From the NCBI GenBank assembly GCA_964413525.1, contig CAYPTI010000004.1:1-37379 (forward strand): a DNA stretch of 37,379 nt. Direction: 5' to 3'. Both the position numbers and the translations under genes were made by a program. Under the pieces are notes generated by a model. That model was not told the DNA's origin, did no database searches, and saw only the letters and a list, made by a program, of their open reading frames with translations. This document shows positions 9,558-37,379 of the stretch, one piece after another. Each line of letters begins with the position of its first letter. The first letter of the stretch is position 1. Source of the stretch: an uncultured bacterium. Lineage in GTDB: Bacteria; T1Sed10-126; CAYPTI01.

Positions 9558-9659
9558 GTGACGAAACTTCTTCCAGGATACGGACAGGCCGATCATGATA
9601 TCAAATCGAGGGAAAAAACGAATTCCCGACAATCCACCAGGAAGAAATTCCGGCCAACG

Positions 9660-11147: not shown

Positions 11148-11155
11148 CGGAGGAC

Positions 11156-12730: not shown

Positions 12731-12768
12731 CCGGGACCATTCGGACGCCGAGGGTGTCGAAACCAGGC

Positions 12769-20710: not shown

Positions 20711-22981
20711 TCAGGAGAAGTAAGCAAGCACTTTTTCGGTAAAGCTTCGGTCCACCGTCCGGCGGTCCACGTAATCGTCGGAAATCAGGTCCAGAAACCG
20801 GCTGGGCTGCTGCCGGGTGATCTCCCTGTCTACGGAACGCTCCCGAGCGCAGGTAAGGTAGAGTTCGTCCATGGCCCGAGTAATTCCCCGGTAGAACAAC
20901 CGGCGTTCCCGCTCCAGCCGATCGTATTCTCCCGATCGGGGTGATCGGCGAGGACAAATTCCCTCCTCCAGGCCGACGAACAATACAACGGGAAATTCCC
21001 GGTCGGACAGGGCAAACAGGCTCAACAGCTGCACCTCATCGTCCGACCGAGCTGAGCCGGACTGAGCTTCCCATTCGCGACGCCGGGCGAGCCGAACCAG
21101 ATCCTCCACCCCCCGGGACCCGTCAAACCGAGCTTCCGTTCGAATCCACGATTGGCAGTTCGAAAAATTGAGTTCACGAACGGACTGACCGGTTTCCTCG
21201 TACATCGAACGGATGGACGGAACCAGCTCCGCGGGGTGAGCCCCCCGCCGGAGGTCCCGATCCATCTCCCGGAGGCGATCGAAACAACGATCCAGTTGTT
21301 GAACGGTTGATGATTGAAATCGTTCCCAGGTCGTCCGTCGGAGTTCCTCTTCCTCAAGCAACCGAACCGGATTATAAACGTGTTCGATAAGGGCCTGCTC
21401 CGTGGCGTCCAGGATGCCCGGCTCGCCCCCCAGCGCCGTCAGGAGGGCCTCGTTCCACTCCGGAAGATTGTTGCGGACCGCCTCAGGGGCGTCGGTCACC
21501 CGGCCCGAGGAATCAAATTGAAGCTCCTCGGACCGAAACCGGGCAAGGGCTACAAGTACCTGAAAGACCGCGAGGACCGCTTCGGTCGAGGGCAGCGAAA
21601 AGAAGTCTCTTCCCATCCCGGCTTCCTGGACGGGGATACCCTGTTCCTTCAGGGTTTCCTCCAGGGGTTCTCGCAGATCACCGGACCGAAACAGCACCGC
21701 GAAGTCCCCGTAGCCATAACCATCCCTGGCGAGGCGCTCGATGGTGTGGCCGATGAATTCCCGTTCCTCCCGCTCGTCCCGGGACTCAAACACGGCAATG
21801 TTGTCCCCGTATTCAACGCCACCGTCTTCGGTCAGCCGACCGGGCTTGAGTTCGTCGACCTCCGAACCGCTCTCCGCCATCACGTCGTTTGCGGCCAGTA
21901 CAATCATCCCCCGGGACCGGTGATTCACGTCGATCGTCATGGTACTGGCCCCGGAAAAAACTTCCTTGAACCCGGACCGGTCCTCATCCGTCGTTCCGGA
22001 GGGTTCAAACTGGTGGTGATCCCCGAAGGCGGTCAGCTGTCCCTTCTCCCCCACGAGGCTCCTGATCAACTGAACCTGGGCGTTGTTCAGGTCGTACCAT
22101 TCATCAACCAGGAGGTGAGAAAAACGGTCGCGGAGATGCCGGCTCACCGGCTCGTCGGAGCGCATTAACTGCACCGTGATTTCGATCAGATCGTCAAAAT
22201 CCTGGACCCGGTTGGCCCGCTTTTCCTCCTGATAGGCTCCGTAGACCCGGGCCGCCTGTTCGTCCAGCTTGTGGTCGACGGTTTCAAGGGCCTTCTCCGG
22301 CGGGATCAGGTCGTGCCTGTACTCATTGATCCGATCCCTAACCTCGTGGCGCTGTGGAATATCGATGTCCAGCCGGTCCATGATCCGGGAAACCATGTCC
22401 CTTCGATCGGAAGGGTTCAGCAGGGAGATCCCTCTGACGTAGGCGTCGTCGAATCGCTCGACGAGGGTTCGGTCCTCCCCCGGAAGGGGTCGTTCCAGCA
22501 GCTGAAGGCAGGCCGAATACACGCTGGTGATCCAGCCCGTCTCGGGAAGCCGATTGACGATTCCCCGGACCACCATACCGGTTTCGGTCGAAAGATTTTC
22601 CGCCCCGGCCAGGAGAAGCTCCTCAACCCGGTTCTGGAGACTCGAAGCAGCCCGGCCGTTTGCGGCCAGCACAAGAATTCGGTCCAGAGGAACCCCGGAG
22701 AGGATCAGAAAAACAATTCGCCGACCGAGCAGAACCGTCTTCCCGGTCCCGGGTCCTCCTCGGACCAGGAACGACTCCTCTCCCGGTTCATGGAGGAGCC
22801 CCCTCAACTGTTCCCCGTCCAGAGGGGGAGGACCGCAAACCTGCCTCACGAGCAGACCCGCCAGGTCCGGATCGTCGAGCCCCTGAAGAAGTTCGGTGAA
22901 TCGATCCCTGAGGTCCCGGTTGTCAAGTTGATCGAGGTAGGTCTCCAACCGATCACGACAGGGGGGAGCGACGTACTTCAC
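20711..22981 (-). CDS. UvrD/PcrA/Rep-like SF1 DNA helicase, divergent motifs
   Basis: 756 aa with a GTG start overlapping the upstream stop (GTGA). Motifs: Q-like LDGEQLRGLL; motif I GGPGTGKT; Ia LAANGRAASSL; II LLVDEWYDLN; III AFGDHHQ; IV VNHRSRG; V SLFALSDREFPVVLFVGLEEGICP; VI RERRLFYRGITRAMDELYL. Confidence 0.85.
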   Translation of the reverse strand: MKYVAPPCRDRLETYLDQLDNRDLRDRFTELLQGLDDPDLAGLLVRQVCGPPPLDGEQLRGLLHEPGEESFLVRGGPGTGKTVLLGRRIVFLILSGVPLDRILVLAANGRAASSLQNRVEELLLAGAENLSTETGMVVRGIVNRLPETGWITSVYSACLQLLERPLPGEDRTLVERFDDAYVRGISLLNPSDRRDMVSRIMDRLDIDIPQRHEVRDRINEYRHDLIPPEKALETVDHKLDEQAARVYGAYQEEKRANRVQDFDDLIEITVQLMRSDEPVSRHLRDRFSHLLVDEWYDLNNAQVQLIRSLVGEKGQLTAFGDHHQFEPSGTTDEDRSGFKEVFSGASTMTIDVNHRSRGMIVLAANDVMAESGSEVDELKPGRLTEDGGVEYGDNIAVFESRDEREEREFIGHTIERLARDGYGYGDFAVLFRSGDLREPLEETLKEQGIPVQEAGMGRDFFSLPSTEAVLAVFQVLVALARFRSEELQFDSSGRVTDAPEAVRNNLPEWNEALLTALGGEPGILDATEQALIEHVYNPVRLLEEEELRRTTWERFQSSTVQQLDRCFDRLREMDRDLRRGAHPAELVPSIRSMYEETGQSVRELNFSNCQSWIRTEARFDGSRGVEDLVRLARRREWEAQSGSARSDDEVQLLSLFALSDREFPVVLFVGLEEGICPRRSPRSGEYDRLERERRLFYRGITRAMDELYLTCARERSVDREITRQQPSRFLDLISDDYVDRRTVDRSFTEKVLAYFS

Positions 22982-23496
22982 GAACTTCCCGGACCCCCGC
23001 CGGTCGCCGGCGTCTGTTCCCGATGTTCGTACCAGAAGTGATAGAATTCCGTCAGTTTCTCCATCAATTCCTGTTCCGCCGCCGGATCCAGCCGGAGGGG
23101 GACGCGGCCCTCGGGTGAATCGTCCTCCAGATAGATGAGTTCGCCCCGTTTGATCGGTTCAGCAAAATCGTGTTTAAGGATCCAGAGATACATCAACAGC
23201 TGCATGCGGTGGCCCTCAAAGGAACGTTCGTTGCGTCGTCCCGACTTCAGTTCGAGGACCACGGGCTCGCTGCTGTCGTCCCGGACGATAAAATCCGGGG
23301 CGCCCGAGGCGACGATCGGGGGATGCTCCAGCCGCCGGGTGAACAACCGGGACCCATCGTCCTGGTATAGTTTTTCGGGATACCCAAACAGGTGCCCGGC
23401 GGGGTCCTCGTCGAGTTCCTCGAGCACGACGTTCTGAACCACCGCGATCAGAACCACAATCAGTAACCCGAACGCGGTCAACAGAACGGGGTTCAC
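22978..23496 (-). CDS. membrane-anchored PD-(D/E)XK nuclease of RecB/Cas4 type (no Fe-S cysteines)
   Basis: 172 aa with a GTG start overlapping the upstream stop (GTGA). N-terminal hydrophobic helix NPVLLTAFGLLIVVLIAVV. Core motifs: APDFIV (D), VVLELKSG (E-x-K), RMQLLMYLWIL (QxxxY). Confidence 0.7.
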   Translation of the reverse strand: MNPVLLTAFGLLIVVLIAVVQNVVLEELDEDPAGHLFGYPEKLYQDDGSRLFTRRLEHPPIVASGAPDFIVRDDSSEPVVLELKSGRRNERSFEGHRMQLLMYLWILKHDFAEPIKRGELIYLEDDSPEGRVPLRLDPAAEQELMEKLTEFYHFWYEHREQTPATGGGPGSS

Positions 23497-23927
23497 GGGG
23501 CCGGTTGTCCGGATTCGGACAACTTGGATTCATGTTCTTCAAGCCATCGATCGGGGAAGTTGACGAACTGTCCGAACTCGTGGGGAGTCACCTTGAGTTC
23601 CGGACCATCCTCCCGGGCTTCAACGGGTATGACGGATCCCTCCTCTTCTCGGGACCCATCGGGAACCCCGGTCTCCTCGGGGGGATGGACTCGACCGCGA
23701 ACCTCCTCCGGGAAGAGGTCCTGCAGTTCTTCACATTCCGACCCGCGGATCCAGTCCTTGAACCCTTCCTTCCAGTAGTGGTGTTCGCCGGTGAACACCC
23801 GGTTTCGGATCGCCACACGGAGCAACGGCAATCGAAAGGGACCCAGTTGCCCGGGATCCGCTTCCGGATCGTCCTCGCCGGGTGGCACGGCGTGTACGTA
23901 CCATTGATCGGGTTGGGACCGGTTCAC
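23493..23927 (-). CDS. GYF_2 (DUF4339)-like domain protein with an acidic C-terminal half
   Basis: 144 aa with a GTG start overlapping the upstream stop (GTGA). QWYVHA...GQLGPFRLPLLRVAIRNRVFTGEHHYWKEGFKDWIRGSECEELQDLF fits the bacterial GYF_2 pattern (WY..G...GPf....l......i.....vW.eGm.dW....e...L). No signal peptide or TM helix. Confidence 0.6.
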   Translation of the reverse strand: MNRSQPDQWYVHAVPPGEDDPEADPGQLGPFRLPLLRVAIRNRVFTGEHHYWKEGFKDWIRGSECEELQDLFPEEVRGRVHPPEETGVPDGSREEEGSVIPVEAREDGPELKVTPHEFGQFVNFPDRWLEEHESKLSESGQPAP

Positions 23928-24178
23928 GAGTCCGTCCCCGTGGTCGGCTCCTGGTCTTCATCCCACGCTTCAAATTCCTCCAGATCATCCTCCGGAGGCT
24001 CCTCAACCTCACCATCCAGGGGATCGTCGACCGGCTCGTCCGGATCAAAATTTTCCTCCGGTACGTCGACCGCGGGGGGATCCTCCTCCGGGACTTCCTG
24101 GATCGGGTCGCCCCCGCAGCCGACCAGCACCAATCCGCCAAGCAGAACCAGACAACCAATCCTGATGAACCGGTTCAA
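23924..24178 (-). CDS. small acidic lipoprotein
   Basis: The TTG at 24178 lies 6 nt after AAAGGGGA. Signal peptide with lipobox (M)NRFIRIGCLVLLGGLVLVGC, then a D/E/P-rich mature part of about 64 aa. The longer track ORF (to 24388) would overlap the upstream gene and has no other start codon in the gap. Confidence 0.5.
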   Translation of the reverse strand: MNRFIRIGCLVLLGGLVLVGCGGDPIQEVPEEDPPAVDVPEENFDPDEPVDDPLDGEVEEPPEDDLEEFEAWDEDQEPTTGTDS

Positions 24179-24263
24179 ACTCGATCCCCTTTCGGACGGT
24201 TCCGACCGACTTGACGGGGGTGGAACCCCCTCCCGGTTGGTCGGTCCGGTGCGTTGAACGATT

Positions 24264-25325
24264 TCACTCCAGAAAATCAAACACTCCGGTCTCGACGCGA
24301 AGTTCGTTTCCGTCGGTGTACATTGCGATGTGACCGGCCTGATCGGTTCGCTGGATCTGAGGCACGTCGGCCGACTCGAGTCGGTCAAGAACGGTCCGGG
24401 ACGGTCCCGGTGGGTTGGAGGTCGAAATTACGGCGTGCTGTGGATCAACCATCCCGAGCAGTTCCTCCGAGGTGGAGGGATGATAGCCGTGCTGACCCAC
24501 CTTCAGCACCTCCGACTCCAGGGTCTCGGCGTAATTCAGGACCAGTTCCCGCTCTCCACCCGGTTCCTCGGCCGGTTCGGTCGGGAGATCGGACATCAGG
24601 AGAAACCGCACGTCTCCATACTGGAGAAACAGAACGTGACTGGCGTCCTCGGGAAGAATGGCCTCGGCATCTCCATGGAGCACCCTGGTTCGAAGCCCGG
24701 CGCCGAGGTCAAGTTCCTGTTGGGGTTCCATAAACTCCTGGGGAACCTCATGTGCCTGAGCCTCCGCCTGGAGTCGGCGGTAGGAAAAGTTTTCAGCCGG
24801 AAACCCGGTCCGGAGGAGCCTTCCGACCTCGACGGCATCGTGGGCAATGAGGTCCGGCTGAGCCCCAACGTGATGGGAAATGGGGACGGTGGTTATCAGC
24901 GTATCAATCCGATCGATGCCGGTCAGCTGGAAGAACGGCAGGTACAGTTCGTAGGCCCAGTCATACGGGGGGACGTCGTCTCCGGAAGGGGTCGAGCCTT
25001 CCCCGCCATCCACCAGCGTGACCCGGTTGTCAGGGGTCTGGATCAATATCCCATCCCCGTACCCGACATCCATGAACACGACGGCCAGTTCCCCCGGCTG
25101 ACGGCCGGGGATCCGTCCATCGGGCTGGACGTTTGCGTCCGTGGGGAGTCCGGAACCGGCTCCCACATACCAGTTTACATAGGTCGGTGCGGCCATGTAC
25201 CAGAGCCACCCGGACAGGGCGAACAGAACCGCTACGAGTATCCAGCCGGTGAGGCTTCCCCCCGCGTCGGACGGGTCCGGATCAGCCGAGGCCGGGGAGT
25301 CAAACTCGTCGAACCGATCACTCAT
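24264..25325 (-). CDS. membrane-anchored ComEC-type MBL-fold protein with degenerate catalytic motifs (probable pseudo-enzyme)
   Basis: 353 aa with a TM helix (WILVAVLFALSGWLWYMAA). Colinear with the 297-1409 protein, but VFMDVGYGDG, TVPISHHVGAQ (replacing HxHxDH), MSDLPTE, KVGQHGYHPSTS and PPGPS replace the metal-binding motifs. Confidence 0.75.
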   Translation of the reverse strand: MSDRFDEFDSPASADPDPSDAGGSLTGWILVAVLFALSGWLWYMAAPTYVNWYVGAGSGLPTDANVQPDGRIPGRQPGELAVVFMDVGYGDGILIQTPDNRVTLVDGGEGSTPSGDDVPPYDWAYELYLPFFQLTGIDRIDTLITTVPISHHVGAQPDLIAHDAVEVGRLLRTGFPAENFSYRRLQAEAQAHEVPQEFMEPQQELDLGAGLRTRVLHGDAEAILPEDASHVLFLQYGDVRFLLMSDLPTEPAEEPGGERELVLNYAETLESEVLKVGQHGYHPSTSEELLGMVDPQHAVISTSNPPGPSRTVLDRLESADVPQIQRTDQAGHIAMYTDGNELRVETGVFDFLE

Positions 25326-25343
25326 CCCCGGTCACAATCTCCA

Positions 25344-26045
25344 TCATTCCACCACGGCCCGACCGCTGATGTCCTCGACGGTGACCGGGCCGATCCCGGA
25401 CACTTCCTGGAGATCGTCGAGATCCTCAAACGGGCCGTTCTCCTCCCGGTACGCAACGATCGCTTCCGCCGTGACGGATCCGATCCCGGTTAACTGGGTC
25501 AGGGTGGACTCGTCGGCGGTGTTTACATTAATTTCTTCCCCGGAGGTGGCCGAATCGCCTTCGGGACACGGTTCGTCCTCGTACTCCTGACCCACCGTAA
25601 AGTGTTCTTGCCAGTCCTCCACGTAGGTTGACCCGATCCCGCTGGCCCCTTCGAGCTGATCGAGACAGACAATCGGGTCGTCCAGCTGATCCCGGAACTC
25701 AATCAGGCTTTCAGCGCGAGATTGCCCGAGGTTTGGAACCCCCGCGTTGGTGAGTTCTTCCAGGGTTACTTCGTTGATGTTTACCTTCCGGGCGTACTCG
25801 ATCTCCGCCCGTCGCCCGGCGTCCACGCGCTCCACGGACAACTCGGTTTCCGGGACAAGGTCCGGGTCGTCCGGCTCCGACCGTTCCGCGGATTCCGCAA
25901 CCCGGTCGGCCGTCCCGGGAGGTCCCTCGCCCTCCATCATAAGCCCCGGGACGGCAAGTACCCCCAGAACGACCGCGATCAGAACCAGCACGTACTGCTG
26001 CGAGTTCACGGTCCAAGCCTCCATTCCGTTCCCGCTGGCCGGCAT
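25344..26045 (-). CDS. comEA: ComEA-type competence protein (TM anchor plus two helix-hairpin-helix DNA-binding modules)
   Basis: 233 aa with a TM helix (YVLVLIAVVLGVLAV). Module 1: KVNINEVTLEELTN...LGQSRAESLIEFR...LDQLEGASGIGSTY. Module 2: INVNTADESTLTQLTGIGSVTAEAIVAYREENGPFEDLDDLQEVSGIGPVTVEDI. Confidence 0.85.
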   Translation of the reverse strand: MPASGNGMEAWTVNSQQYVLVLIAVVLGVLAVPGLMMEGEGPPGTADRVAESAERSEPDDPDLVPETELSVERVDAGRRAEIEYARKVNINEVTLEELTNAGVPNLGQSRAESLIEFRDQLDDPIVCLDQLEGASGIGSTYVEDWQEHFTVGQEYEDEPCPEGDSATSGEEINVNTADESTLTQLTGIGSVTAEAIVAYREENGPFEDLDDLQEVSGIGPVTVEDISGRAVVE

Positions 26046-26046
26046 C

Positions 26047-26079
26047 GTTCTATGTTCGAAACGAACATGTGAACCGAAC
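26047..26079. promoter_or_regulatory. cluster of GTTC/GAAC half-sites including a perfect 7-bp inverted repeat abutting the comEA start codon (candidate operator or RBS-occluding hairpin)
   Basis: ATGTTCG-AAA-CGAACAT lies at 26052-26068. Half-sites are at 26047, 26054, 26063, 26071 and 26076. The comEA ATG is at 26043-26045, and no Shine-Dalgarno sequence is evident. Confidence 0.3.
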
Positions 26080-26244
26080 CAACAAACGCTTCAGATGCCG
26101 ATTGATTATACCAACTACGAAAACAATTCGAGATCCCATAGAAACAGCTAACGATCGGGTACCGAAACGTATGGATACTCGGCCTCCGTCCATTGTTTTC
26201 GTTCAGCCGGAAGCTGACATCCGAGTTGGTTTCGTCTCCCGGTT

Positions 26245-26342
26245 GGGGTGATTGTTCAACGTCTATTCAAGCGGTTCGTGACGATTGGTGTCCCCCGGTT
26301 GGTTCCCGAACGACAAATCAAACTTGACCGGAGCCCAACCGG
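26245..26342. repeat. intergenic repeat element, copy B (between the comEC stop and the comEA start)
   Basis: Blocks: GGGGTGATT (26245-26253), TCTATTCAAGCGGTTCGTGAC (26262-26282), and TGGT plus a 10-nt insertion plus TGGTTC. The 8-bp stem CCGGTTGG (26295-26302) pairs with CCAACCGG (26335-26342). Confidence 0.5.
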
Positions 26343-26370
26343 TCCCATAGCAGTAGACGTGGCCTTCTCC

Positions 26371-26415
26371 TCGACGAGATTCGAAGGTTCCCCGGACGGG
26401 TCGGAACCTCGTCGA
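26371..26415 (-). terminator. long GC-rich hairpin about 45 nt downstream of the comEC stop (possible U-tract-less terminator or RNA-stability element)
   Basis: TCGACGA(G) and GGTTCC on one arm pair with GGAACC and TCGTCGA on the other. That gives 7 + 6 bp with one internal loop and an 11-nt apical loop. No T/U run follows on the minus strand. Confidence 0.3.
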
Positions 26416-26457
26416 CCGGCGGGTCCTCCGTGACAACATCATGGGATGAGAAATCGT

Positions 26458-29400
26458 TTACAACCGAGCGTCGAATGCTTCTCCCTCCTGTTCGGTCACC
26501 ATACCGTTCTCGGTTTCGACAAACGGAGTGATGGACAATTCGTCGCCGTCGGAGCGCACGATTATCGCGTGGTCCCGGTCGGTCCGAAAAAGCTGCCCGT
26601 CATCATACCGTTCTGAAAGAGCCTCCCAGGTCGCGGTGATTTGTTCTTCCATGTCCTCCCCCTGAGGTCCCCGGATGTCGATGCGGTCGGCGGTGGACAG
26701 GACAACGAACTCGGGATCGACGGCGTCGTAAAACGGTTCGTAATAACTTTCCGACGCGGTCCCGTTTGACGGAACGAACAGGACGTCCGCTTCCAGTTGC
26801 CCCGCTCCGTACCGATCAAGCATCCAGTTCTGGGCGTCTTCCCGGATGTCCCCCGGAAGCAGGATCCGGGTCTCCCCGATTTCAACCATCAACACGACGG
26901 ATTCGTTTTCGGCCACCCGGAAGGTGTGCGGGCTTGATTCCGGTGGGTTCAGGGCGGTGATCCGGAAGGGTACCTCCTGCCCGTCAATGGTCAGGGTTTC
27001 GTCCCAGACTACATCTCCCTCCCGAGGACGGTAATACTCCGTTTCCTGTCGCCGGAGGGGTTCCCACATTCGTTTCCAGTTGTGAAAGTAATCGAATCGA
27101 AACCATTGAGCTTCCTGGTTTTCCTCCAGATAGGAATCACCGATGGCCGCCGTAAAATCGTCCAGCGAGGGTGAGGACCCGAGCCGGTCCTCCGGGAGGG
27201 GGCCGATCGCGGCCCGGACCACGAAGTGATTGGCCATGTACCCCATGCCTCCCAGCCGCTGGGGTTCGATCGACTGAAGTCCGAGCAAATCCAGTTCCTT
27301 GATTCCCTGCCTCAGAAAAAAATCCGACACCGCCAGACGGCCCTGATCCCGACGGTCGGGAAGGTTGTCCCGGTGATGCCAGTCCCACTGACGGGCCCCG
27401 GCGTTCAGCAACATGTTGGTTCCCCCGGGGGCCTGGACGGCAACGGCCGATCCGTACCCGACGTTCAGGGCCGTCAGCCGCACTTCCTCCGGCGGTGATT
27501 CGATAAACCAGAAGGAACCGTACAGAATCACTCCCGCCACGGAGAGCACGGCCACGAACGTTTTCGCGGGACTGGTGAGGGGGCGCCCGAGAAATTGACC
27601 CCAGAACCGCTTAAACCCCTCCAGTGAGGGGCGCCAGGCGATGAACAGCCCCAGCGCGCCGTAAAAGACGAGCAAATGCCAGAGGGTAAATTCCCGGACC
27701 GCCGGATAGGGAAACAGTTCAAACGAGAAATGAGACACCCACATGAACAGCCAGACGGCCAGAAAGTTGCCGGCGTTGAGAAGCAGGGCGAGCCAGTGCC
27801 CGACGACCGGAATCAATCCCATCAATCCCGCAAACAACCCGAGGGGAACGACAATCCCCACCAGGGGGATGGCGAGCAAGTTGGCGTAGATCCCCGCAAA
27901 GGGGTACTCGAGGAAGTAATAGGCGCTCAGGGGCCACATCATCCCGAGCTGGACGGCGAACTGGAGTCCGATGAAGTTCCGGAGGCTGGCCGGGATGTCC
28001 AGAAACCCGATTCCCCCCGCGATCCGGTGCCTGCGGTCGACATCAAACGCCCACCAGAACGTAGCCCCCCAGAACCCGAGATAGGGAAGATACACCACCG
28101 GCTGAAGAAACCAGTTCCAGTGGGCCATCAACAGATAAGTGGTGACCGCGGCGACCACCCAGAAAAGGAGGAAACTCAAGCCTCTGAGTTTCTGGAGCAC
28201 CCGGTCCACCGGTCCGCTGAGCAACACGAGGCAGAGCACCGCCGTGAAGGAGAGGGTGAACGACGCTTCGAACACGAGCTGCGGCTGAATCAATAGAATA
28301 ACTAATGCCGCGGCGGACAGTCCGACCATGGCCGAGTTCTTGAGACCCCGTTCGGAGTACGCGAAGACGATCAGAATCAGGGCCGTCATGATAAAGGCTC
28401 GCTGGGTGGAGGGACGGGCCCCCGTGAGGATGGTAAAGATCAGCAGAAGCACGACGATAAGGGGAGCGTAAATTTTTTTCGGCAGCCTGAGCCCGGCAAA
28501 CAGAGCCCAGAACGCTCCCGCCAGCACCCCGACGTGAAGCCCGGAAACCGCAAGCACGTGCATGGTTCCGGCGCCGCGGAACTCCTCGTTTACCAAATTT
28601 TTGAGAAAATTTTCTTCATGGCTCCGTACGTACTCCGGGATCTCCCCGGTTTGAAAGGGACTGAGGGTGAAATCCAGCCCCTCCCTCAATCCGAGCGTGG
28701 CCCCGCCCAGAAAGGCGGAATACGGGTAGGGCATGGTTTGCTTGATGACCTTCAACATCTCCGTTTGAAGCCCGAGGGCCCAGGCCACCATCCGATTGCC
28801 GGTGTTTTCCTCCAATCGCTCTACGTCGGTGGCAAACCACATGGCTCCGTAAATCCCCTGGTTGTGAAGAAACTGCTGGTAATCAAACCCATGCGGGTTG
28901 GTCCGGGGCATCGGTTCACTGATCGGGCCGGTGAACCGAAGCCGATCGGCGTAAATGGAGTTATCGGCGGCCTCGGAAAAGGAAAGATCGTGGTCCTGAT
29001 AGGATTGAATCCGGAGGAGCAACTGGCCCCGGTCGACCGGATGGGGCTCCCCCTCCTCTTCATACCGGATCCGTTCGGGTTCAACGGTCAGCGTCACTTC
29101 TCCGTCCTCGGTGACCTCCGGGGCTTCGACCACGGTCCCCTCGACCGTTCGGGGGTCGTCAAACCCGTCGGACAGATGCTCGTCCAGGCTGTTGGGGTAC
29201 AGGTGATCCAGAGCCATCGAATAGCGCCCCCACCCGACCAGGAAGGCAATGAGACCGATGATGCCGAAGACGAACAGGGTCTTGCGCCAGCCAACGACGT
29301 GGAGGACGTAGGCCCCAACCCCTCCGATCAGAACGGACCCGCCAACCGCCCCCCACAGTCCGCTCATTTCCTCCGGAAACAGGGGGAAAAACACGGCGTA

Positions 29401-29663: not shown

Positions 29664-30075
29664 CGATCAAATCACTCTCGGAGAAGAAAAAGCCGATCTC
29701 ACGCTCGGCGCTTTCCGCCGAGTCGGCTCCGTGAATGGAATTCTCGGTGATGCTGCTGGCAAATTCAGCCCGAATGGTGCCGGGAGCCGCATCCTCGGGA
29801 TCGGTGGCCCCCATAATGGTTCGGAGCCTCCGGACGGCGTCCTCCCCCTCCACGACCCCGAGTACTACGCTTCCGGAGGTAATGTACTCAATCAACTCGT
29901 CAAAAAACGGTTTGGATCGATGTTCCCCGTAAAACCGACGGGCCTGGGCGTCACTGATGCGAGTCTTCTCAAGACAGACGATGGACAGTCCATCGGACTC
30001 GATTCGGCTCAGGATCTCACCAACGAGATCCCGTTCAACCGCGTCGGGTTTGATCATCGTGAACGTTCGTTCCAT
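29656..30075 (-). CDS. ndk: nucleoside diphosphate kinase
   Basis: The ATG at 30075 gives MERTFTMIKPDAVERDLVGEILSRIE...FYGEHRSKPFFDELIEYITSG...GATDP..AAPGTIRAEFA....NSIHGADS (active-site His). 139 aa. The track ORF's 32-aa N-terminal extension was rejected. Confidence 0.95.
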   Translation of the reverse strand: MERTFTMIKPDAVERDLVGEILSRIESDGLSIVCLEKTRISDAQARRFYGEHRSKPFFDELIEYITSGSVVLGVVEGEDAVRRLRTIMGATDPEDAAPGTIRAEFASSITENSIHGADSAESAEREIGFFFSESDLIDG

Positions 30076-30304
30076 GATTCTCGCTCCCTCGAAAAACAAA
30101 GTAATGGGTTCGATTAGCAGCCACTGTTGTCCCCCGACCCGGGATCCCGCCTGACCCGTCCGGCCACCCAACTCAGAAATCGTCGAACAAGGGTAATGGG
30201 CTGTCCGGGGGAGGACAATGTCCCCCCCGAAGAAACGGCACGACTGAGCTGGTTTTCCCGGGATGGGGGCGACCCGTCACCTCAAGGAGGATCCTGCGCC
30301 AACA

Positions 30305-31504
30305 TTACCCGCTCTCGCCCAGTTCCGATTCACCCTGAGCGATCTGAAAAGCATTATAAAGTAAGTCCCCGGTCATCTGAGCAACCAGACGCAGTTTCAG
30401 TTTGTCCGCGTTGCCCAGCTCCTCCCCGGTTTCTTTTTCCGTCGCCCGGATAACCCCGATGGTTTTCCCCCGTGAACGAATGGCCGCCGCCACCCCGGCT
30501 CCCTTCCGGGGACGGTCGATGATGTTCGCCTGGCCCAGTTCAGCAACCGTTCCGACCTCACCCGAACCGATGTCGACCGTGAGGTTCTGAAGCCGGTCGC
30601 GCTCCATCCACTGGTCCTCCTCCAGTCCCATCTGGCCGACAAGCTGATCCGGGTTGTCGGTGGAAACCAGAAACACCATGGTCTGGCGGACCTGAAGCAT
30701 GTTGTAGACCGAATTTACCATGTACTTCAGAAGCGCTTCCGGATCGAGGGTTTCCCCCACCCGCTTGGCGTAATCAATTAATTCAAAGTACTCATCCGGA
30801 GTCAGCGGTCCGGTCGACGTCTCCTCCTTCGCCCGTTCAAGCTTTTCCTCGTATTGGTTCGTGATTTCCGACCGGGCCAGGCTGATCCGGTTCGTGATCA
30901 GATCCTCCCACCGTCGCTGCAGGAACAGGACCACCAGGACGGCGATCACCAGGAGAACGGCGGTACCCAGGGCAAGTTGATTGACGGTGGAATACCAGTG
31001 CCGCCAGAGAAACTCCCGGTCAATCCCGATCATCAAGCCCCCGTAGACGGTACCGTCGGCGGTAACGGGCAGGACGATCTCCCGAACGTCGAGGTCCTCC
31101 CCCTGAACATCCTCACGGGACTCGATCACAAGCCCCTCCGTATCGACAAACCGTTCCTCCTCCAGCATGGACCGATCGCCGGGGGAAACGTCTTCGTGGA
31201 CCGAACTGAGGACGAAGTTCCCCCGATCGTCCAGCACGGCCATGTACGCAATTCCAAAGTCTTCTCGACGGGTGACAAGCTGATCGGTGGCTGTATTTAA
31301 GGTTGTAAAATTGGCCGAAAGGAAGGGTTCAAACAGGGAGTAGGCAATCATCTCACTGACGTCATCTACCGTGTCGGAGGCTCGCTGGCTCGCGGTCTGA
31401 TAGCTGAAGAAATAGGCTGTAAAAGCTAAGAGAAGGATGAGTGCCACAACGAATGCCAGAATGGAATTTCGCACCTGGGAAGCGAGATCCGACCCATCGT
31501 CCAC
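30305..31504 (-). CDS. membrane sensor-like protein: TM, Cache/PDC-like periplasmic domain, TM, coiled linker, GAF domain, no output domain
   Basis: 399 aa with a GTG start 38 nt after the secretin stop. TM1: ILAFVVALILLLAFTAYFF. Extracytoplasmic segment IAYMAVLDDRGNFVLSSV...LPVTADGTVYGGLMIGI is typical of Cache-like sensors. TM2: LALGTAVLLVIAVLVVLFL. The C-terminal GAF-like block is LDPEALLKYMVNSVYNMLQVRQTMVFLV...VAAAIRSRGKTIGVIRA. I saw no HisKA, GGDEF or HTH motifs. Confidence 0.65.
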   Translation of the reverse strand: MDDGSDLASQVRNSILAFVVALILLLAFTAYFFSYQTASQRASDTVDDVSEMIAYSLFEPFLSANFTTLNTATDQLVTRREDFGIAYMAVLDDRGNFVLSSVHEDVSPGDRSMLEEERFVDTEGLVIESREDVQGEDLDVREIVLPVTADGTVYGGLMIGIDREFLWRHWYSTVNQLALGTAVLLVIAVLVVLFLQRRWEDLITNRISLARSEITNQYEEKLERAKEETSTGPLTPDEYFELIDYAKRVGETLDPEALLKYMVNSVYNMLQVRQTMVFLVSTDNPDQLVGQMGLEEDQWMERDRLQNLTVDIGSGEVGTVAELGQANIIDRPRKGAGVAAAIRSRGKTIGVIRATEKETGEELGNADKLKLRLVAQMTGDLLYNAFQIAQGESELGESG

Positions 31505-31542
31505 GTCAGATCACCCGGCGTTCCCGGGACCGAAGATGACGT

Positions 31543-34500
31543 TCAACGATTCGATTCAGTCTGGGTATCCCGTTCCACCGTTACGTTCACGTCCCGTTCA
31601 ATCTCTCCGTTATCGCTTGTATCAGACTCCAGTCCCTCCTCGACGTTGGCGGCCGTCCGGGGAGTAATGTCTTCCCCGTCGTTCGCCGAGGACGCCTCGG
31701 CACGGTCACCGGAGGGATCGTAGTTCTCGCCCGACGGGACGGTTTCGGCCTGCGTTCGCGATTCACCGGAATCCAGAACCATGACTTCCTGCAACACCGA
31801 ATCGATGTAATCGGAATCTACGCCCCGGTCGATCAGAAGGTTCCGGACCACGTCAAAGTCCTCAAACCGAATTCTCAAATCTCGCTCGTGAGAGAGGTCG
31901 GTGGCGATTTGAGCGTCAATGTGACGGACCCGGCTAAGCTGCCGGGGAGTGGCCGAGTTCACGGGGATCGACAGTTCGACCCGATCCATGATCTGCTCCA
32001 AAACGAGCGGGTCCACGCCGGGCAACCTGAGCAGATCGCTGAGGCTCGTGAAGGGTCCGGCGTTTCGTCGGTAATCATCGGCCGCCGCCGCCAGCTGCGC
32101 CGGGTCGGAGGCGTCGCTCAGGCTGAACAGCCGCTCCAGTTGTTGGAAGGAATCGGTGTTCACGTTGACCGACAGTCCGCTGCTGAACTGAGCCTCCTCG
32201 CCGATCCGTTCCTCGGCCAGTCGATCGACTTCCTCCGCCTCCTCCATGACGTGGGGGGTGAGAAAGACGACCAGTTCGTTCTGGACAACATCCTCCGAGT
32301 AGCTGCTGAACGCGTGTCCCAGCACAGGGATGTGACGCAGGAAGGGAACCCCGGTTTCCTGGATCTCGACGTCGTCCTGGATCAACCCGCCGACCACGAT
32401 CGTTTGGCCGTCCTCCACGTACAGTTTGGACTGACTGGAGCGACTTTCGGTGGTGAGGGTTTCCTCCTGGGGACTAACGAATATTTCGTTGATGATGTTC
32501 AGGTTCAGCAACACGTCCCGGCTCTTGGTGATGGTAGGAGAAATTTCCAGCACGGTCTCCGCCACCACCTCGGTCAGCGTGGTGGTCACCACTCCTCCTT
32601 CGGAGACTTCCGTCTCCTCGGCGAACCGGGTCTCCTCCAGCCGAATCACGCCCTGCTCATTGTTCAGGGTGGAGATCTGCGGCCGGGCCACGATTTCGCC
32701 GTCAAGGTCTTCTTCCAGGAAGTCAAGGATGACCTGGAGGTCCTCCTGCTGGAAAAGACCGGTGAAGACTCGATCCGCAAACTGCGGGAGCGCAGGATCC
32801 GCTGATACGTCGGGACCGCCGGGGCTAGGACCGGTGGGGGGATCCGAACCAAACTCAACCCGCAAGTCCTCATTCAGGTAGTTCCAGAAGGGGTTGAACT
32901 CGAATCCCTCCTCCAGGTCATATTCGGCCAGTACCCCTTCGACGTAGACCTGCTTGGCCCGGACGTCAAATTGCTTGATCAGGTCCCTCACCATCGACCG
33001 GTTGTTCCTCGGCGTGGCAAACACCACCCGGTTCAGGTCCGGATCGGCGGTGAGTGAGACGTTAATGTTCAGATCCTCCACCACCTCGGACGTCCGGGTG
33101 ACGAGATCCTCGGGCCCGTCGGTCGGACCTTCCGGCGACGGAAGGGCTCCGCGTTCGGCGTCGTCGTCCAGCAGGCCCGAGATCACGTCAACCACGTCGT
33201 GGGCTCTCCGATAGTTCAACTCCACGTGACCGATCGTGTACCCCGACTTATCAATTTGCTCCAGAAATTGCCGGGTCTCGTCCTGACGGTTTGAAGGCAC
33301 CAGGAGGGAAATCCGGTCGGGGGTGACGTGAAGCAAAGTCGCGTACTGGAGTTCGTCCAGCTGGTCCTCAAGATCCTCGGCGTCCAGGTTGGTCGGAAAA
33401 TACGTGATGACGGAATGATCGAAAAAGGCGTTGCTGTCGAGTTTTTGAATGATCTCGCGCAGCATCGACGCATCGGAGGGCTGCAGGGAAAAGACCGCCC
33501 GCAGTTCGTCCGAGTATACGACACGGGGAAGAGCCCGTTCCCGTTCGAGGGTGTCGTCGATGTTCTGGAAGTACTCCTCCAGTTCGCCGACCAGGGTGGA
33601 CACGTCCACGAACTGGGGGGAGTACACCACGATCTCCCGACCCGACTGATCGATCTCGGTGGAGTCGAGCCGGGACATGATCTCGCGGAACTCGTCGATT
33701 TCCTCTTTCGTCGACGAACGCAGGAGCAGAAGGTTCCGTTCCGGGATCGCCGTCTCCACGTCCACGCCCGGGAACCGTCCGACAAACGAGTTGACCCGTT
33801 CCACGCCGAGAACCTGGGCCGGATACCACTCCCAGTAGTAGTCCTCCAGCTCAACGTAGGAGTCCTCGATCTCCTGGATGATCTCCCGGGCGAAGGAACG
33901 GAAGTTGCTGGGACCGATCAGCATGATCGTGTCGGTTTCTTCAAGGATGATGGCATTCATCTGGGTAACCACTTCTTCGAGGTTGGCGGCATCGGTTCCT
34001 TCGGTCTCTTCCTGGGGAGCAAAGAAGAAGACTTCCTCAGTCTCATCAACGTCCTCCGCCACCCCGATGATCTGGTTGAGCTTCTCCAGCACCACCGACG
34101 GATCGGCTCGTTCGATTTCAATCAGGTCATACGAGAAACTTGAGAGATCGGACGAATCGATCTGGTTCAGCTGGTTGAGGGCCGACTCAAGGGCCTCCTG
34201 TTCCGGGGACGATAGAAGGAAGGCGTCAAGGTATTCAATCGTGCTGAACGTCTGGACGTTGCCCATCCGGTTGATCAGCGATTGGGTTTGTTCAAACGGA
34301 ATGTTTTCCGCCTGATACCACTCAAACTTCTGCCGGTCCATGTAATCGAGGCCCATCTCCTGAATCCGTTCGATCATGGCTTCGGCCGTGTCCAGAAGGT
34401 CGGGAGACCCGAAGATCAGAATTTGCTGCAGTTCGGGGATGGCGATGATCTGCCCTCGTTCAAGGAGCTGTTCAATATTGACCTGCCGTTCCTCCTGGAT

Positions 34501-36840
34501 GATCTGACGGATTTCGTCCGGGTCGGGGTCGGTAAATGTGAGATCCCCGATATTCACGCCGGTGGTAATGTCCATCCCCAGGATTCGGTTCACCTGGGCG
34601 GCGATCTGTTCGGCGTCGAAGCCCTCCATGTCAATAAACCGGAAGTTCTCCTGCAGCCGGCCCGGCTGATCCATGATCTCCACCAGCTCGACCACTCGTT
34701 CGACCATCGCGGTTTCTCCGTACACAACGATCTCATTGGTCCGGGGGTGGCTGATAATTCGTCCTTGTTCCCCGAGGGGAAGATCCGACCGCAGACGGTC
34801 CGCGAGATCGTCGTTGTTGATCGAAAGAGCCTCGTGCTCGAGTTCAATAACCCGGTATTCAAACCCCTCGTACACCCCCCGCTGGATGGCTTCCTCCCGA
34901 GCGACCACCGTAACGACGTCCTCGTCCATGACCCTCGCAAATCCCTGGGTTTCCAGGATGGTGTCCATGGCCCGAAGCGGCGTGACGTCCTCGAGGTGAA
35001 CGGTGACCGAGCGCTGTTCGTCATCGGCCTCCAATTCCTGAAGGACCAGGTTGATGTTGGAAATCTCCGCCAGGGTTCGAAGAACGTCCGAAAGGGGCGC
35101 GTCCTGAAGAGAGACGCTGATGACGTTCGGCCGGCCGAAGATCGTGAAGGTGGTGGAGGGTTCGCCCTCGATTTCCAGCAGGGACGCCCGAACCTCGTTG
35201 ACCTCCCGATCCGGGGCAATTCGGTAGACATCCACTTCCACCCGACCGTCGTCGTTTGTTTCCTGGCGCCGGCTGAGGCCCGGCTGGACCTCGTTTACGT
35301 CCAGAAAAGCGCCCCGGGTCAGAGATTTAAAGGTGACCATGACGTCGGGGACCGGGTTCCCGAACCGGTCCTGAACTTCAACCATCATTGGATTCGGAGG
35401 CCGCTCGCCGAACAGGGTCTCCTGCCGATCTCCGGCGACCGTCTGGATGTCAACCGGTTCGGCCGCCTCTACCTCCAGCCGGTAGTTCACCAGGAGATCG
35501 TATTCTTCCACGGAAGCGACGATTTCAACCGGTCCGGAGGTTTCCTTCGATCGGGCATGGAACCGAACGCGACCGTCTTCATCGGTTCGTAACTCCAGCG
35601 ATTCCCCCTGAAATTCATCCGGCGATTCACCCAGTTCTACGTCTCCATGACGAACGGAAACCTCCACCCGTTCGTCGTCCAGCGGTTCCCCGTCCTCGTC
35701 CACGAATTCGGCGATCATGGGATCGGAGGTCTCCCGGGGGATCCCGAGCGACTGACCATGGCCTTCGACCCGCTGAAGCTGGTAATACAGATCGGGGTGA
35801 ACCTGCCGGAAGATGTCCTCAATCTCCGGATCCTCGTCCGCCCCGGGGAAGATCTCCTCCACGTCGAAGATGTCGATAACGACACGATTACCCGGGGTGT
35901 CACGGTAAATTTGAAAATTGTCATGCCACTGTTCCAGGTCCAGGACCACGCGGGTCGTATTAATGGGATCCACCCGGTACTGACTGTGGCGCACCCGGAT
36001 GACGTCCTTCAGCTCGATGGGAAGGGGGGGGTCGGGAAGAGCATTGAGGGCGTTCGGGATGTCAATTACCAGCATGGCCGGATCAAAAATTTCCGACACC
36101 ACGTAATCAAGGGAGCGCGATCCCCGGATCGAGATCCGGACTCGGTCGGGATACTCCCGGGCTTCCACTCCGTACACGGCTCGGGTCCGACCCTCCGGTT
36201 GATCGTAATCCGTCCGAACATGACGAATTACTTCGGAGGGTTCGGCCTGGATCTCAGGGGGTTCCTTCGGCGCTTCCTGATCGTCCACGGTCGCGAACGG
36301 AGAATCCGGACGAACCTCCGCCGGATTCTGGACGGACCCCAATTGAATGTCGTTGGGATCCTCCCGATCCGCCAGCTCCCCAAGCTCCTCTTCGGCTTCT
36401 TCAGCCGCCTCATCCTCGGGAAGGTCAACCAGCTCCTCAAGGGTCTCACGAAGCTGTTGAGCCTGGGTATGGTCGGGATCCTCATCCAGAGCCCGACGAA
36501 CCCGATCGAGAGCCAGATCGTATTCTTCGTCAATAAAGTGGTTGACTGCCTCGGAGTAAAAAACCTCGGCCGAAGTCCCTTCCTGGGCTTGTTGCGTTTC
36601 CTGCGCCTGAATGGCCGTTGGATGGAAAAAGAACGTTAAACAGAACAAACTCGCGAGTAGCCCCACGAGCAAAAACAGGGACGAATATGAACCCCCGGGC
36701 GTTGTACGGTGGAATAATACCAATCCGATGGCTCCCTTCGGCTTCGTCAATGGTGCCTTCACCGATACGGAATCAGCCCCGGTGGAGGCGTGTTTCCCGG
36801 CCGCTTGTGCGGCTCGTGTGGTCATCACAATTGTCGCCAT
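31543..36840 (-). CDS. pilQ: giant type IV pilus / competence secretin (PilQ-like) with TPR-like, AMIN, Ig-like, STN/N0 and about 8 ring domains, a secretin core and C-terminal ComEA-like HhH modules
   Basis: 1765-aa ORF. Hydrophobic signal-like segment LFLLVGLLASLFCLTFFF..AIQAQ. AMIN-like: RVRISIRGSRSLDYVVSEIFDPAMLVIDIPNA...TRVVLDL. Two Big_1-like beta domains: MMVEVQDRFGNPVPDVMVTFK...DDGRVEVDV. N0/STN: ISVSLQDAPLSDVLRTLAEISNINLVL. Repeated Secretin_N-like units: ...PRTNEIVVYGE...VELVEIMD. Secretin core: IVARPQISTLNNEQGVI...GQTIVVGGLIQDDVEIQETGVPFLRHIPVLGHAF...ELVVFLTPHVM. Start uncertain: a TTG at codon 40 behind AAGGGAG is an alternative. Confidence 0.85.
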   Translation of the reverse strand: MATIVMTTRAAQAAGKHASTGADSVSVKAPLTKPKGAIGLVLFHRTTPGGSYSSLFLLVGLLASLFCLTFFFHPTAIQAQETQQAQEGTSAEVFYSEAVNHFIDEEYDLALDRVRRALDEDPDHTQAQQLRETLEELVDLPEDEAAEEAEEELGELADREDPNDIQLGSVQNPAEVRPDSPFATVDDQEAPKEPPEIQAEPSEVIRHVRTDYDQPEGRTRAVYGVEAREYPDRVRISIRGSRSLDYVVSEIFDPAMLVIDIPNALNALPDPPLPIELKDVIRVRHSQYRVDPINTTRVVLDLEQWHDNFQIYRDTPGNRVVIDIFDVEEIFPGADEDPEIEDIFRQVHPDLYYQLQRVEGHGQSLGIPRETSDPMIAEFVDEDGEPLDDERVEVSVRHGDVELGESPDEFQGESLELRTDEDGRVRFHARSKETSGPVEIVASVEEYDLLVNYRLEVEAAEPVDIQTVAGDRQETLFGERPPNPMMVEVQDRFGNPVPDVMVTFKSLTRGAFLDVNEVQPGLSRRQETNDDGRVEVDVYRIAPDREVNEVRASLLEIEGEPSTTFTIFGRPNVISVSLQDAPLSDVLRTLAEISNINLVLQELEADDEQRSVTVHLEDVTPLRAMDTILETQGFARVMDEDVVTVVAREEAIQRGVYEGFEYRVIELEHEALSINNDDLADRLRSDLPLGEQGRIISHPRTNEIVVYGETAMVERVVELVEIMDQPGRLQENFRFIDMEGFDAEQIAAQVNRILGMDITTGVNIGDLTFTDPDPDEIRQIIQEERQVNIEQLLERGQIIAIPELQQILIFGSPDLLDTAEAMIERIQEMGLDYMDRQKFEWYQAENIPFEQTQSLINRMGNVQTFSTIEYLDAFLLSSPEQEALESALNQLNQIDSSDLSSFSYDLIEIERADPSVVLEKLNQIIGVAEDVDETEEVFFFAPQEETEGTDAANLEEVVTQMNAIILEETDTIMLIGPSNFRSFAREIIQEIEDSYVELEDYYWEWYPAQVLGVERVNSFVGRFPGVDVETAIPERNLLLLRSSTKEEIDEFREIMSRLDSTEIDQSGREIVVYSPQFVDVSTLVGELEEYFQNIDDTLERERALPRVVYSDELRAVFSLQPSDASMLREIIQKLDSNAFFDHSVITYFPTNLDAEDLEDQLDELQYATLLHVTPDRISLLVPSNRQDETRQFLEQIDKSGYTIGHVELNYRRAHDVVDVISGLLDDDAERGALPSPEGPTDGPEDLVTRTSEVVEDLNINVSLTADPDLNRVVFATPRNNRSMVRDLIKQFDVRAKQVYVEGVLAEYDLEEGFEFNPFWNYLNEDLRVEFGSDPPTGPSPGGPDVSADPALPQFADRVFTGLFQQEDLQVILDFLEEDLDGEIVARPQISTLNNEQGVIRLEETRFAEETEVSEGGVVTTTLTEVVAETVLEISPTITKSRDVLLNLNIINEIFVSPQEETLTTESRSSQSKLYVEDGQTIVVGGLIQDDVEIQETGVPFLRHIPVLGHAFSSYSEDVVQNELVVFLTPHVMEEAEEVDRLAEERIGEEAQFSSGLSVNVNTDSFQQLERLFSLSDASDPAQLAAAADDYRRNAGPFTSLSDLLRLPGVDPLVLEQIMDRVELSIPVNSATPRQLSRVRHIDAQIATDLSHERDLRIRFEDFDVVRNLLIDRGVDSDYIDSVLQEVMVLDSGESRTQAETVPSGENYDPSGDRAEASSANDGEDITPRTAANVEEGLESDTSDNGEIERDVNVTVERDTQTESNR

Positions 36841-37155
36841 TCCAGTTGTTTGGCTGGTCCATCATGAATCGGTCTTCAAATTGAAGGGGTTTCATCATAA
36901 TCTCTGCACCTGATTAGATCGAGACCCCTCCGTGGCAATGTCCGTGTGAACATCCTGACTAAAAATAGAGAAGTTTGACAAAAAACACAATACACGCTCC
37001 AAATTCGAGAATCTTTTCAGTTGACCACCCCGCCTCGACCCGTTTCGGTTTCCGAACAGGCAGGGGAGGAAAACGTCCGGAAGAACCGATCACGGGGTTC
37101 CCGTTGCTTGCGGACGGGAGGTGAATGGGGAAGGCTCGGGTTTAAGTCCAATCAA

Positions 37156-37379
37156 CTACTGAAGTCGAATTCCTTCCTCGATCCGTTGCCGAACCCGATC
37201 GGTCTGGAATTGAAACAACGTTGTCTTGTAATCCGGGTGCGACAGCCAGACCCCGGTGTCACTGATGGTTTCGGCCCGGATGTCGGATTCTCCAACGAAT
37301 TCTCCCACCCCGACCCGATAGGTTTCCCCCGAGGATTCTTCCCGGACCAGAGCCTGGCGGACGTCCTCGGCCCCGAAGA
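37156..37379 (-). CDS. PilP-like pilus assembly protein, C-terminal fragment; the gene starts beyond the right edge
   Basis: Open minus-strand frame entering from the right edge, ending at TAG 37156-37158. ...ALVREESSGETYRVGVGEFVGESDIRAETISDTGVWLSHPDYKTTLFQFQ resembles the PilP C-terminal beta-domain pattern (..ALV....G..hRV.vGdylG...g.V..I....i.l). It sits immediately upstream of the secretin, as in pilMNOPQ operons. Confidence 0.5.
   Translation of the reverse strand, partial: FGAEDVRQALVREESSGETYRVGVGEFVGESDIRAETISDTGVWLSHPDYKTTLFQFQTDRVRQRIEEGIRLQ

Follow-up and report, generated by a model that had tools for sequence, protein, structure and literature searches.

In the described systems of natural DNA uptake, DNA enters through PilQ, the secretin of the type IV pilus (PMC7545093, PMC3879209), and ComEA has been proposed to act as a ratchet for its transport into the periplasm (PMC3879209). 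Loss of the Lactamase_B domain is frequent in ComEC, the DUF4131 and Competence domains alone constituting the 'DC' profile (PMC6299819). About half of ComEC proteins have no active nuclease domain, and the handling of the second strand has been stated to be an open question (PMC8579336). In Streptococcus pneumoniae, the inactive C-terminal domain of ComEC was proposed to serve as a guide, the cut being made by the membrane nuclease EndA (PMC8579336, PMC12455585). Here we analyze homologs of these proteins encoded on contig CAYPTI010000004.1 of an uncultured bacterium (assembly GCA_964413525.1). The window, that is, the whole 37,379-nt stretch analyzed, contains between positions 20711 and 37379 a row of genes for a PilP-like fragment, a giant secretin, a GAF-domain protein, the nucleoside diphosphate kinase Ndk, a small transmembrane (TM) protein, ComEC, ComEA, a stand-alone paralog of the metallo-β-lactamase (MBL) domain of ComEC (MBLp), and a cassette of lipoprotein, GYF, nuclease, and helicase genes. 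Coordinates in the window refer to the minus strand, unless stated otherwise.

A preliminary description of this DNA had interpreted the entire row as one co-evolving machine, ordered along the path of incoming DNA. Every gene named in it was recovered from the list of open reading frames (ORFs), in each case on the minus strand, and searches for domains confirmed nearly all of its assignments. As for the machine, a conserved core stands, and the cassette, the argument from the shared strand, and the strict path order do not. In our opinion, the locus is probably a lineage-specific array of competence genes with an attached outer-membrane module of the type IV pilus kind, rather than a single 16.7-kb machine. 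As judged by sequence comparison, the conserved unit would include pilM/(N)/O/P-like genes, a secretin with C-terminal helix-hairpin-helix (HhH) modules (secretin::HhH), a variable slot, ndk followed by the small TM gene and comEC, the TM-anchored ComEA, and MBLp, and in the relatives also a lipoprotein ComEA, which seems to have decayed in the window. It is a variant of the known route via the type IV pilus, ComEA, and ComEC, noteworthy for the secretin::HhH fusion and for the split, decaying nuclease of ComEC.

Evidence for this unit comes from the relatives, whose genomic neighborhoods were collected from contigs of ComEC homologs and by a scan of 185,579 species genomes. The block of secretin::HhH, the slot gene or genes, ndk, an ORF of about 55 aa, ComEC, ComEA, and an MBLp of about 345 aa is intact in loci L001/L002 (GCA_003554945.1 and a JGI soda-lake contig), L003, which is the same as L165 (GCA_964631325.1), L004, L006, and L169 (GCA_042219765.1). 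Loci L005 and L007 are consistent with the block but limited by contig ends. The comparison of synteny thus bears out the core from the secretin to MBLp in every contig that is long enough, but not the cassette. The identity to the window in these about six related uncultured genomes is 45–53% for ComEC, 41–48% for MBLp, 50–56% for Ndk, 26–30% for the secretin, and 61% for PrfA. In L165, where the contig extends far enough in that direction, the secretin is preceded by genes encoding a histidine kinase, a sigma-54-type response regulator, PilM_2, PilO, a PilP-like protein, and a 1009-aa immunoglobulin (Ig)-like protein. Among more distant secretin::HhH loci, PilM_2, PilO, and PilP-like genes lie upstream in L166 and L171, and PilO and PilP-like genes in L167. 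The downstream flanks consist of PEMT, LigT, purH, and purB in L001, L003, and L006, and of rpmE, prfA, prmC, and murA in L004 and the window. No secretin was found within 10 kb of ComEC at any of about 74 other ComEC loci from many phyla. Since the core is intact at 26–30% secretin identity with changed flanks, and since other ComEC genes have no secretin nearby, its linkage is both unusual and kept over a deep divergence.

The secretin gene (31543–36840) encodes 1765 aa from the first ATG, or 1726 aa according to the gene caller. The order of domains is an N-terminal TPR-like stretch, AMIN (E = 4.5e-7), a Big_1/Ig-like region, a weak STN/N0 match, Secretin_N repeats (E = 1.5e-20), the barrel (PF00263, E = 1.2e-32, aa 1375–1532), the HhH tail, and an acidic end. 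The tail is formed by two tandem ComEA-like modules at about aa 1557–1690 (31771–32172). HHH_3 matches aa 1557–1621 with E = 2.3e-9 (37.7 bits against a cutoff of 27), and lipoprotein ComEA homologs cover both modules in a single match (E = 1e-16), in agreement with the earlier description of a 1765-aa secretin with ComEA-like HhH modules. Orthologs of 1612–1727 aa occupy the equal position in L001, L003, L004, and L006, and all retain the tail. With the PilQ model TIGR02515 the window secretin scores 148.9 bits, under the cutoff of 284.35, and with the GspD model TIGR02517 it scores 219.7 bits, above its PilQ score but under the cutoff of 351.35. Assignment to PilQ by the AMIN domain together with a pil operon is supported by the PilP-like fragment in the window and by the pilM, pilO, and pilP-like genes in related loci. 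The fragment itself (37159–37379) comprises the 73 C-terminal codons of a gene cut by the contig end. Pfam PilP matches it only with E = 0.11; to the C-terminus of the 214-aa gene following pilO in L165 it shows 31% identity over 65 aa (E = 9e-10, tblastn). The designation pilP-like is kept.

Between the PilP-like gene and the secretin, related loci encode an Ig-like protein of 1009–1152 aa (L165, 6955–9984; L166, 6837–10004; L167, 2913–5987; L171, 2622–6080) with faint Big_1/Ig_GEX2_N matches and a C-terminal TPR. In the window, this place (36841–37155) is a mere gap of 315–432 nt. A 37-aa match had raised the possibility that the C-terminal TPR of this Ig-like gene, which the window lacks, became part of the window secretin; this was rejected, as the relatives' secretins begin with a similar TPR-like stretch.

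An exhaustive HMMER/phmmer search of 1.84 billion representatives yielded 24,920 secretin matches, and 20 of the best 150 of these carry from one to four C-terminal HhH modules. The secretin::HhH fusions form a rare family. They recur in the context PilM, PilO, a gene of about 200 aa, an Ig-like gene of about 1000 aa, and the secretin, and are adjoined by ComEC solely in the clade of the window. This family was found by the exhaustive HMMER search; in a separate homolog search, the C-terminal 361 aa of the secretin matched generic secretins only, none of them with HhH modules. The full-length query gave only six matches there, the word filter probably being swamped by acidic low-complexity sequence, and a metagenome scan with the secretin alignment returned ordinary secretins matching at the barrel and no ortholog among the matches listed. 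In a limited literature search, which does not prove absence, no description of a secretin–ComEA fusion or of a pilQ–comEC cluster was found. Giant secretins of 1519–3242 aa with four C-terminal HhH modules are represented by P0178, P0184, P0194, P0198, P0200, and P0249, as well as by L170 and L171. Downstream of the secretin in L170 (GCA_002780065.1) there are toxin-antitoxin genes and pseudopilin genes (N_methyl, T2SSJ). P0236, retrieved in the exhaustive search with the C-terminal secretin query, is a 793-aa protein with six tandem ComEA-type HhH modules.

Several observations weigh against a joint competence array. The organism is represented here by one 37-kb contig, and conserved synteny inside a single clade can partly come from shared descent. 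In L166, L168, and L170, secretin::HhH is present without ComEC within the sequence at hand, so the pilus module works unlinked to comEC elsewhere. What lies between the secretin and ndk varies and is not conserved: homologs of the 399-aa GAF protein occupy the slot in L001, L003, L006, and L007, and a 1294–1448-aa protein and a 313-aa β-barrel-like protein, with no GAF protein, occupy it in L004 and L169. A GAF homolog also follows secretin::HhH in the distant L168. The tail of the secretin, though predicted from its HhH modules to bind DNA, is not assured to do so, because the GIG of its hairpins is degenerate (LFSLS, PGVD, HID, RGVD), only one module passes Pfam, and the sequence is very acidic. 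Finally, the gene row is less compact than it had been described. The claim of one strand with only short gaps holds for the strand, but 315–432 nt separate the PilP-like fragment from the secretin, 229 nt separate the GAF gene from the conserved Met of ndk (133 nt from the first in-frame start), 412 nt lie between comEC and comEA, and 294 nt between the UvrD-like gene and rpmE. The comEC–comEA gap (26046–26457), which in the relatives is at most 37 nt, contains an extended −10-like site, TGgTATAAT, near 26110. Gaps of 229–432 nt suggest several transcription units, and together with this site they suggest separate transcription of the parts in the window.

The same gaps, the variable slot, and the loci with secretin::HhH and no adjacent ComEC speak for two independent neighbors. 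One would be an apparatus of the type IV pilus kind, with which cells adhere, move, or bind extracellular DNA in biofilms, and the other an ordinary comEC/comEA pair; their linkage would have been inherited but not selected, and they would not cooperate. Adjacency of comEA and comEC is by itself commonplace, as in the comE operon of Bacillus subtilis and in Thermus. On the other hand, the junction of the two parts has outlasted the divergence of the secretin and the rearrangement of both outer flanks, and the array combines a secretin bearing a module of the DNA-binding type with two or three additional HhH proteins and ComEC, which fits a substrate common to them. As no other sampled phylum has this adjacency, it is not a frequent neutral arrangement. 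On balance we consider independence of the two systems unlikely and retain the joint array.

ComEC/Rec2 of the window (26458–29472) contains the OB fold (DUF4131, E = 1.1e-22, aa 39–212), the Competence channel (PF03772, E = 1.2e-43, aa 289–614), and a C-terminal MBL-like pseudo-nuclease domain (about 26461–27525). It scores 141 bits with TIGR00361, under the cutoff of 190, and has no match to Lactamase_B (PF00753). The fold signal persists, since the C-terminal domain matches a solved MBL domain of ComEC with E = 1.9e-10. The canonical motifs 1, 2, and 5 of ComEC are DVGQGD, TH-x-[HDE]-x-DH-xGG, and HHGS; in the window they read NVGYGS, LQSIEPQRLGG, and SNGT, so that every His ligand is replaced, and calling the domain dead, as the preliminary description did, was justified. 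The replacement is not confined to the window: H-x-[HDE]-x-D-H and HH are missing in 28 of the 28 aligned members of its ComEC subfamily, which spans Verrucomicrobiota, Kiritimatiellia, Hydrogenedentota, Elusimicrobiota, and Riflebacteria. Judging by these ligands, the nuclease domain is predicted to be dead across the multi-phylum subfamily. The ComEC homologs of 42–53% identity come from uncultured genomes only. In L169, gene calling splits ComEC (8512–11434) into a succession of three ORFs (415, 221, and 305 aa), which could be due to frameshifts, assembly errors, or a pseudogene.

The stand-alone paralog MBLp (24264–25325) is a membrane-anchored protein of 353 aa. Its match to ComEC is confined to the MBL domain (TIGR00361 positions 442–663, E = 2e-15), and the whole domain aligns with solved ComEC structures (9ic4, 30bt, 9vc6; E = 2e-19). 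Its motifs 1, 2, and 5 are DVGYGD, TVPISHHVG, and QHG. In motif 2 (V-P-I-S-H-H), neither the first His nor the second ligand, acidic or His in the canonical motif, remains, and the position of the Asp proposed as the general base of the ComEC nuclease (D602, PMC12455585) is now His. Retained are DVG.GD, the Asp of motif 4, and, from the HH pair, the second His, which do not add up to a complete binuclear metal site. For these reasons, the earlier term "dead MBL paralog" is right about the family but overstated about the activity; the metal site of MBLp looks remodeled, "dead" is not the defensible term, and the protein may or may not possess a nuclease activity. Orthologs that are 41–48% identical occur at the equal position in the relatives, the remodeled pattern being kept in five of them and varied in L005. 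In more distant relatives, namely locus L016 and two loci of Riflebacteria (L029, L030), ComEC, ComEA, and the paralog follow in matching order, and the paralog is fully canonical, with motifs (D/N)VGQGD, THPDSDHGG or THWHNDHLG, and HHG(S/A). The locus family thus presents a series, from a fused active domain, through a dead domain with an intact stand-alone copy, to a dead domain with a remodeled copy, which bears on the question of strand degradation. Another MBL-fold gene of the window, on the plus strand at 297–1409, encodes a canonical hydrolase of the Lactamase_B family, which is not related to the paralog of ComEC type.

ComEA (25344–26045) has an N-terminal TM anchor, with the hydrophobic segment YVLVLIAVVLGVLAVPGLMM, an acidic linker, and two HHH_3 modules (E = 2e-30), in place of the three found in relatives. 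It passes the cutoff of TIGR00426 (95.4 bits against 53.1), which together with the two modules upholds its initial annotation, and is under the cutoff of the full-length model TIGR01259 (96.8 bits against 152). In the relatives, MBLp is followed by a lipoprotein of 216–263 aa, which carries two canonical HHH_3 modules in addition to an acidic linker. The corresponding ORF of the window (23924–24388) has a lipobox, LVLVGC, a likely start near 24178, and nothing else than an acidic Pro-rich linker; no HhH module was detected in it. To judge by its sequence, it appears to be what truncation has left of the lipoprotein ComEA of the relatives.

Among the genes between the secretin and comEC, the one occupying the slot (30305–31504) encodes a 399-aa protein with two TM segments, a periplasmic, possibly Cache-like domain, and a cytoplasmic GAF domain, without an output domain. 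A profile of seven homologs matches the GAF domain of PDE5 with E = 2.3e-7, and the L168 member matches GAF_3 with E = 2.8e-7; the window protein alone matches GAF with E = 0.0012, below the cutoff. Cache is weak, with sCache_3_2 detected in three of the seven members (best E = 0.0016) and TlpB matched with E = 0.51. Of the "Cache/GAF sensor without output domain" proposed initially, GAF can therefore be accepted at the level of the family, the Cache part being a weak match.

The annotation of ndk (29656–30171, likely start at 30075) is confirmed by Pfam (NDK, E = 8.5e-54). Its end overlaps by 8 nt the start of a 64-aa single-pass TM ORF (29469–29663), whose stop in turn overlaps the comEC start by 4 nt (GTGA), so that the ORF overlaps both neighbors and the translational coupling to comEC claimed for it agrees with the frames. 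The 8-nt overlap is kept in relatives (window, 29656–29663; L001, 9784–9791; L165, 16866–16873). The small proteins form a family of 52–64 aa with the motif W..G..GAF...YRF...ESN..Y and 42–54% identity in L001–L007 (tblastn). The position of ndk is common to all relatives, and in the distant L016 it lies directly before ComEC. One could speculate that the coupling of ndk and comEC reflects a link to nucleotide salvage. Extending this, DNA could be imported mainly as food or a source of nucleotides and not for transformation, with Ndk, co-transcribed with ComEC, rephosphorylating the nucleotides. The clade-wide place of ndk and its coupling to the small ORF and comEC would agree with such a role, as would the linking of com homologs in Escherichia coli to the use of DNA as a nutrient. 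The genomes of the relatives are also small, about 2.2 Mb (PMC6146748). Against this, Ndk is a housekeeping enzyme whose position may be incidental, and sequence cannot distinguish nutrition from transformation. We regard a mainly nutritional role as improbable and keep to the competence array as the working interpretation.

Downstream of MBLp, the lipobox ORF, a GYF_2-domain protein (23493–23927; Pfam E = 2.9e-6), a TM-anchored RecB/Cas4-like PD-(D/E)XK nuclease that has the motifs D..ELK and QLLMY and lacks cysteine (22978–23496; Pfam, PADLOC, and NCBIfam), and a UvrD/PcrA-like superfamily 1 helicase (20711–22981; Pfam UvrD-helicase and UvrD_C) are chained via three GTGA overlaps. All the genes of the cassette are present as described. 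The cassette begins 85 nt past MBLp, and it shows no anomaly in G+C content or in G+C content at third codon positions (GC3). However, tblastn found no homolog of the GYF protein or the nuclease at any of the 171 fetched loci, and the nuclease gave no match to plasmids either. The UvrD-like protein reaches the cutoff of no named equivalog. A gene of this kind stands downstream of the array in L001, L005, and L006 and is absent from L003 and L004. The orthology of these helicases is unproven, because the scores of the window helicase with them (149–226 bits) span its score with Geobacillus PcrA (173 bits). The cassette is thus a tightly coupled, window-specific variable neighbor between the array and rpmE-prfA, and its membership in a conserved unit has to be given up. 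As for a defense system, PADLOC gave generic UvrD and Cas4-like matches only. Gabija was rejected since GajB models match the helicase as a generic UvrD (E = 7e-40) and no neighboring protein matches GajA. Cas4 was rejected since TIGR00372 gave 43.8 bits against a cutoff of 65, the protein has no cysteine, and no neighboring gene matches another Cas family (CRISPR repeats were not searched for).

The shared strand and the gene order complete this picture. At least 27 consecutive genes, from 3716 to 37379, lie on the minus strand, including those for an NfeD-family protein, trpA/B/F/D/G/E, hisIE, mnmA, a cysteine desulfurase, murA, prmC, prfA, and rpmE. The G+C skew is negative across the entire window, which fits a leading-strand gene bias. 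Co-orientation is no evidence for a unit, because it is shared contig-wide, and the earlier appeal to co-directionality as a sign of one machine fails. The order along the path of incoming DNA is loosely present, but the sequence of genes is secretin, ComEC, ComEA; with comEA coming only behind comEC, it does not trace the route of the DNA. It is very unlikely that all of 20711–37379 is one co-evolving machine whose cassette processes the incoming strand in the cytoplasm: the GTGA chain, the close spacing and unremarkable composition, the helicase at the matching position in three relatives, and a membrane-anchored nuclease at a locus with no other obviously active one would suit it, but the GYF and nuclease genes lack homologs in the relatives, the helicase is inconstant, the lipoprotein appears to be a truncated ComEA-type protein rather than a cassette component, and housekeeping genes run on for 17 kb on the same strand.

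Elsewhere in the window, the region 3716–11848, on the strand of the competence array, holds a complete trpE-G-D-F-B-A run with overlapping frames, preceded by hisIE and followed by the NfeD-family gene. Between hisIE and mnmA there are 920 nt (11849–12768) without a recognizable gene, in which a 308-aa ORF has a chance-level pilin match (E = 0.18). About 1.5 kb at 2191–3715 likewise have no recognizable gene, with ORFs on both strands and no Pfam match. A scan of the window for consensus promoters and terminators gave no excess above the shuffled expectation, the sigma-54 promoter pattern had seven matches (4.4 expected), none within a relevant gap, Rfam and tRNA scans gave no match, and no frame was found to contain a prepilin motif. 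The proteins of the window are strongly acidic (Asp+Glu 12–22%, Lys+Arg 5–17%), which suggests a salt-in halophile. The G+C content is about 0.60 in the window and 46–48% in soda-lake relatives. The related assembly GCA_003554945.1 (T1Sed10_126) is listed with 121 contigs and a value of about 96.5%, taken here to be its completeness (PMC6146748). Two of the relatives are metagenome-assembled genomes from soda-lake sediment, unclassified Bacteria tentatively labeled "(Candidatus Acetothermia)", with Candidatus Lindowbacteria as the closest reference (PMC6146748).

Starting from the observed domain identities, ligand loss, synteny, and frame overlaps, we infer a topology and an order of hand-over as follows. 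A retracting pilus would draw double-stranded DNA through the secretin, and the HhH tails, one per subunit, could capture it on the periplasmic side, assuming the usual location of the secretin C-terminus. The DNA would then be handed to the membrane-anchored ComEA and further to the OB fold of ComEC. Because its metal ligands are missing, the MBL-like domain of ComEC could only guide the DNA, so degradation of one strand, if any, would be performed by the stand-alone paralog or another nuclease, and the single strand would enter via the Competence channel. The fusion implies that capture of DNA may start already at the outer-membrane channel. More tentatively, HhH-tailed secretins might mark an undescribed competence-dedicated type IV pilus-like system in several uncultured phyla, with a relay from the secretin tail via the lipoprotein ComEA and the TM ComEA to the OB fold of ComEC, and with the nuclease moved to a membrane-anchored paralog; this is possible, though we would not bet on it. 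If true, it would give one concrete answer to how the non-transported strand is handled where the C-terminal domain of ComEC is not active. The array also offers a compact parts list pointing to DNA uptake in lineages known from metagenomes only.

Compared with the PilMNOPQ systems of Vibrio cholerae, Thermus thermophilus, and Neisseria, the window secretin has the same AMIN, N0/STN, Secretin_N, and Secretin domains; a PilP-like gene precedes it, and in its relatives genes for PilM_2 and PilO are also located upstream. Unlike them, it is two to three times longer, has Ig-like inserts and two ComEA-type HhH modules past the barrel, and is under the NCBIfam cutoffs for both PilQ (149/284) and GspD (220/351); moreover, the relatives, but not the window, add an Ig-like gene of about 1000 aa after the pilP-like gene and before the secretin. 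The window ComEA, like ComEA of B. subtilis and V. cholerae, combines HHH_3 modules with an N-terminal membrane anchor and is encoded beside comEC, but in the clade, unlike in known cases, HhH modules are divided among three proteins, namely the secretin (in its tail), the TM ComEA, and a lipoprotein ComEA; the window copy of the last has lost them. As in 'DC'-profile proteins, ComEC consists of the OB fold and the Competence channel with no Pfam Lactamase_B match; in contrast to them, it keeps a full-size MBL-like domain with replaced ligands and has a separate paralog encoded two genes downstream. Finally, MBLp resembles the C-terminal nuclease domain of ComEC in that it aligns over the whole domain and keeps DVG.GD, the Asp of motif 4, and one His of the HH pair, and differs from it in being a separate protein with its own TM anchor and changed motif-2 ligands.

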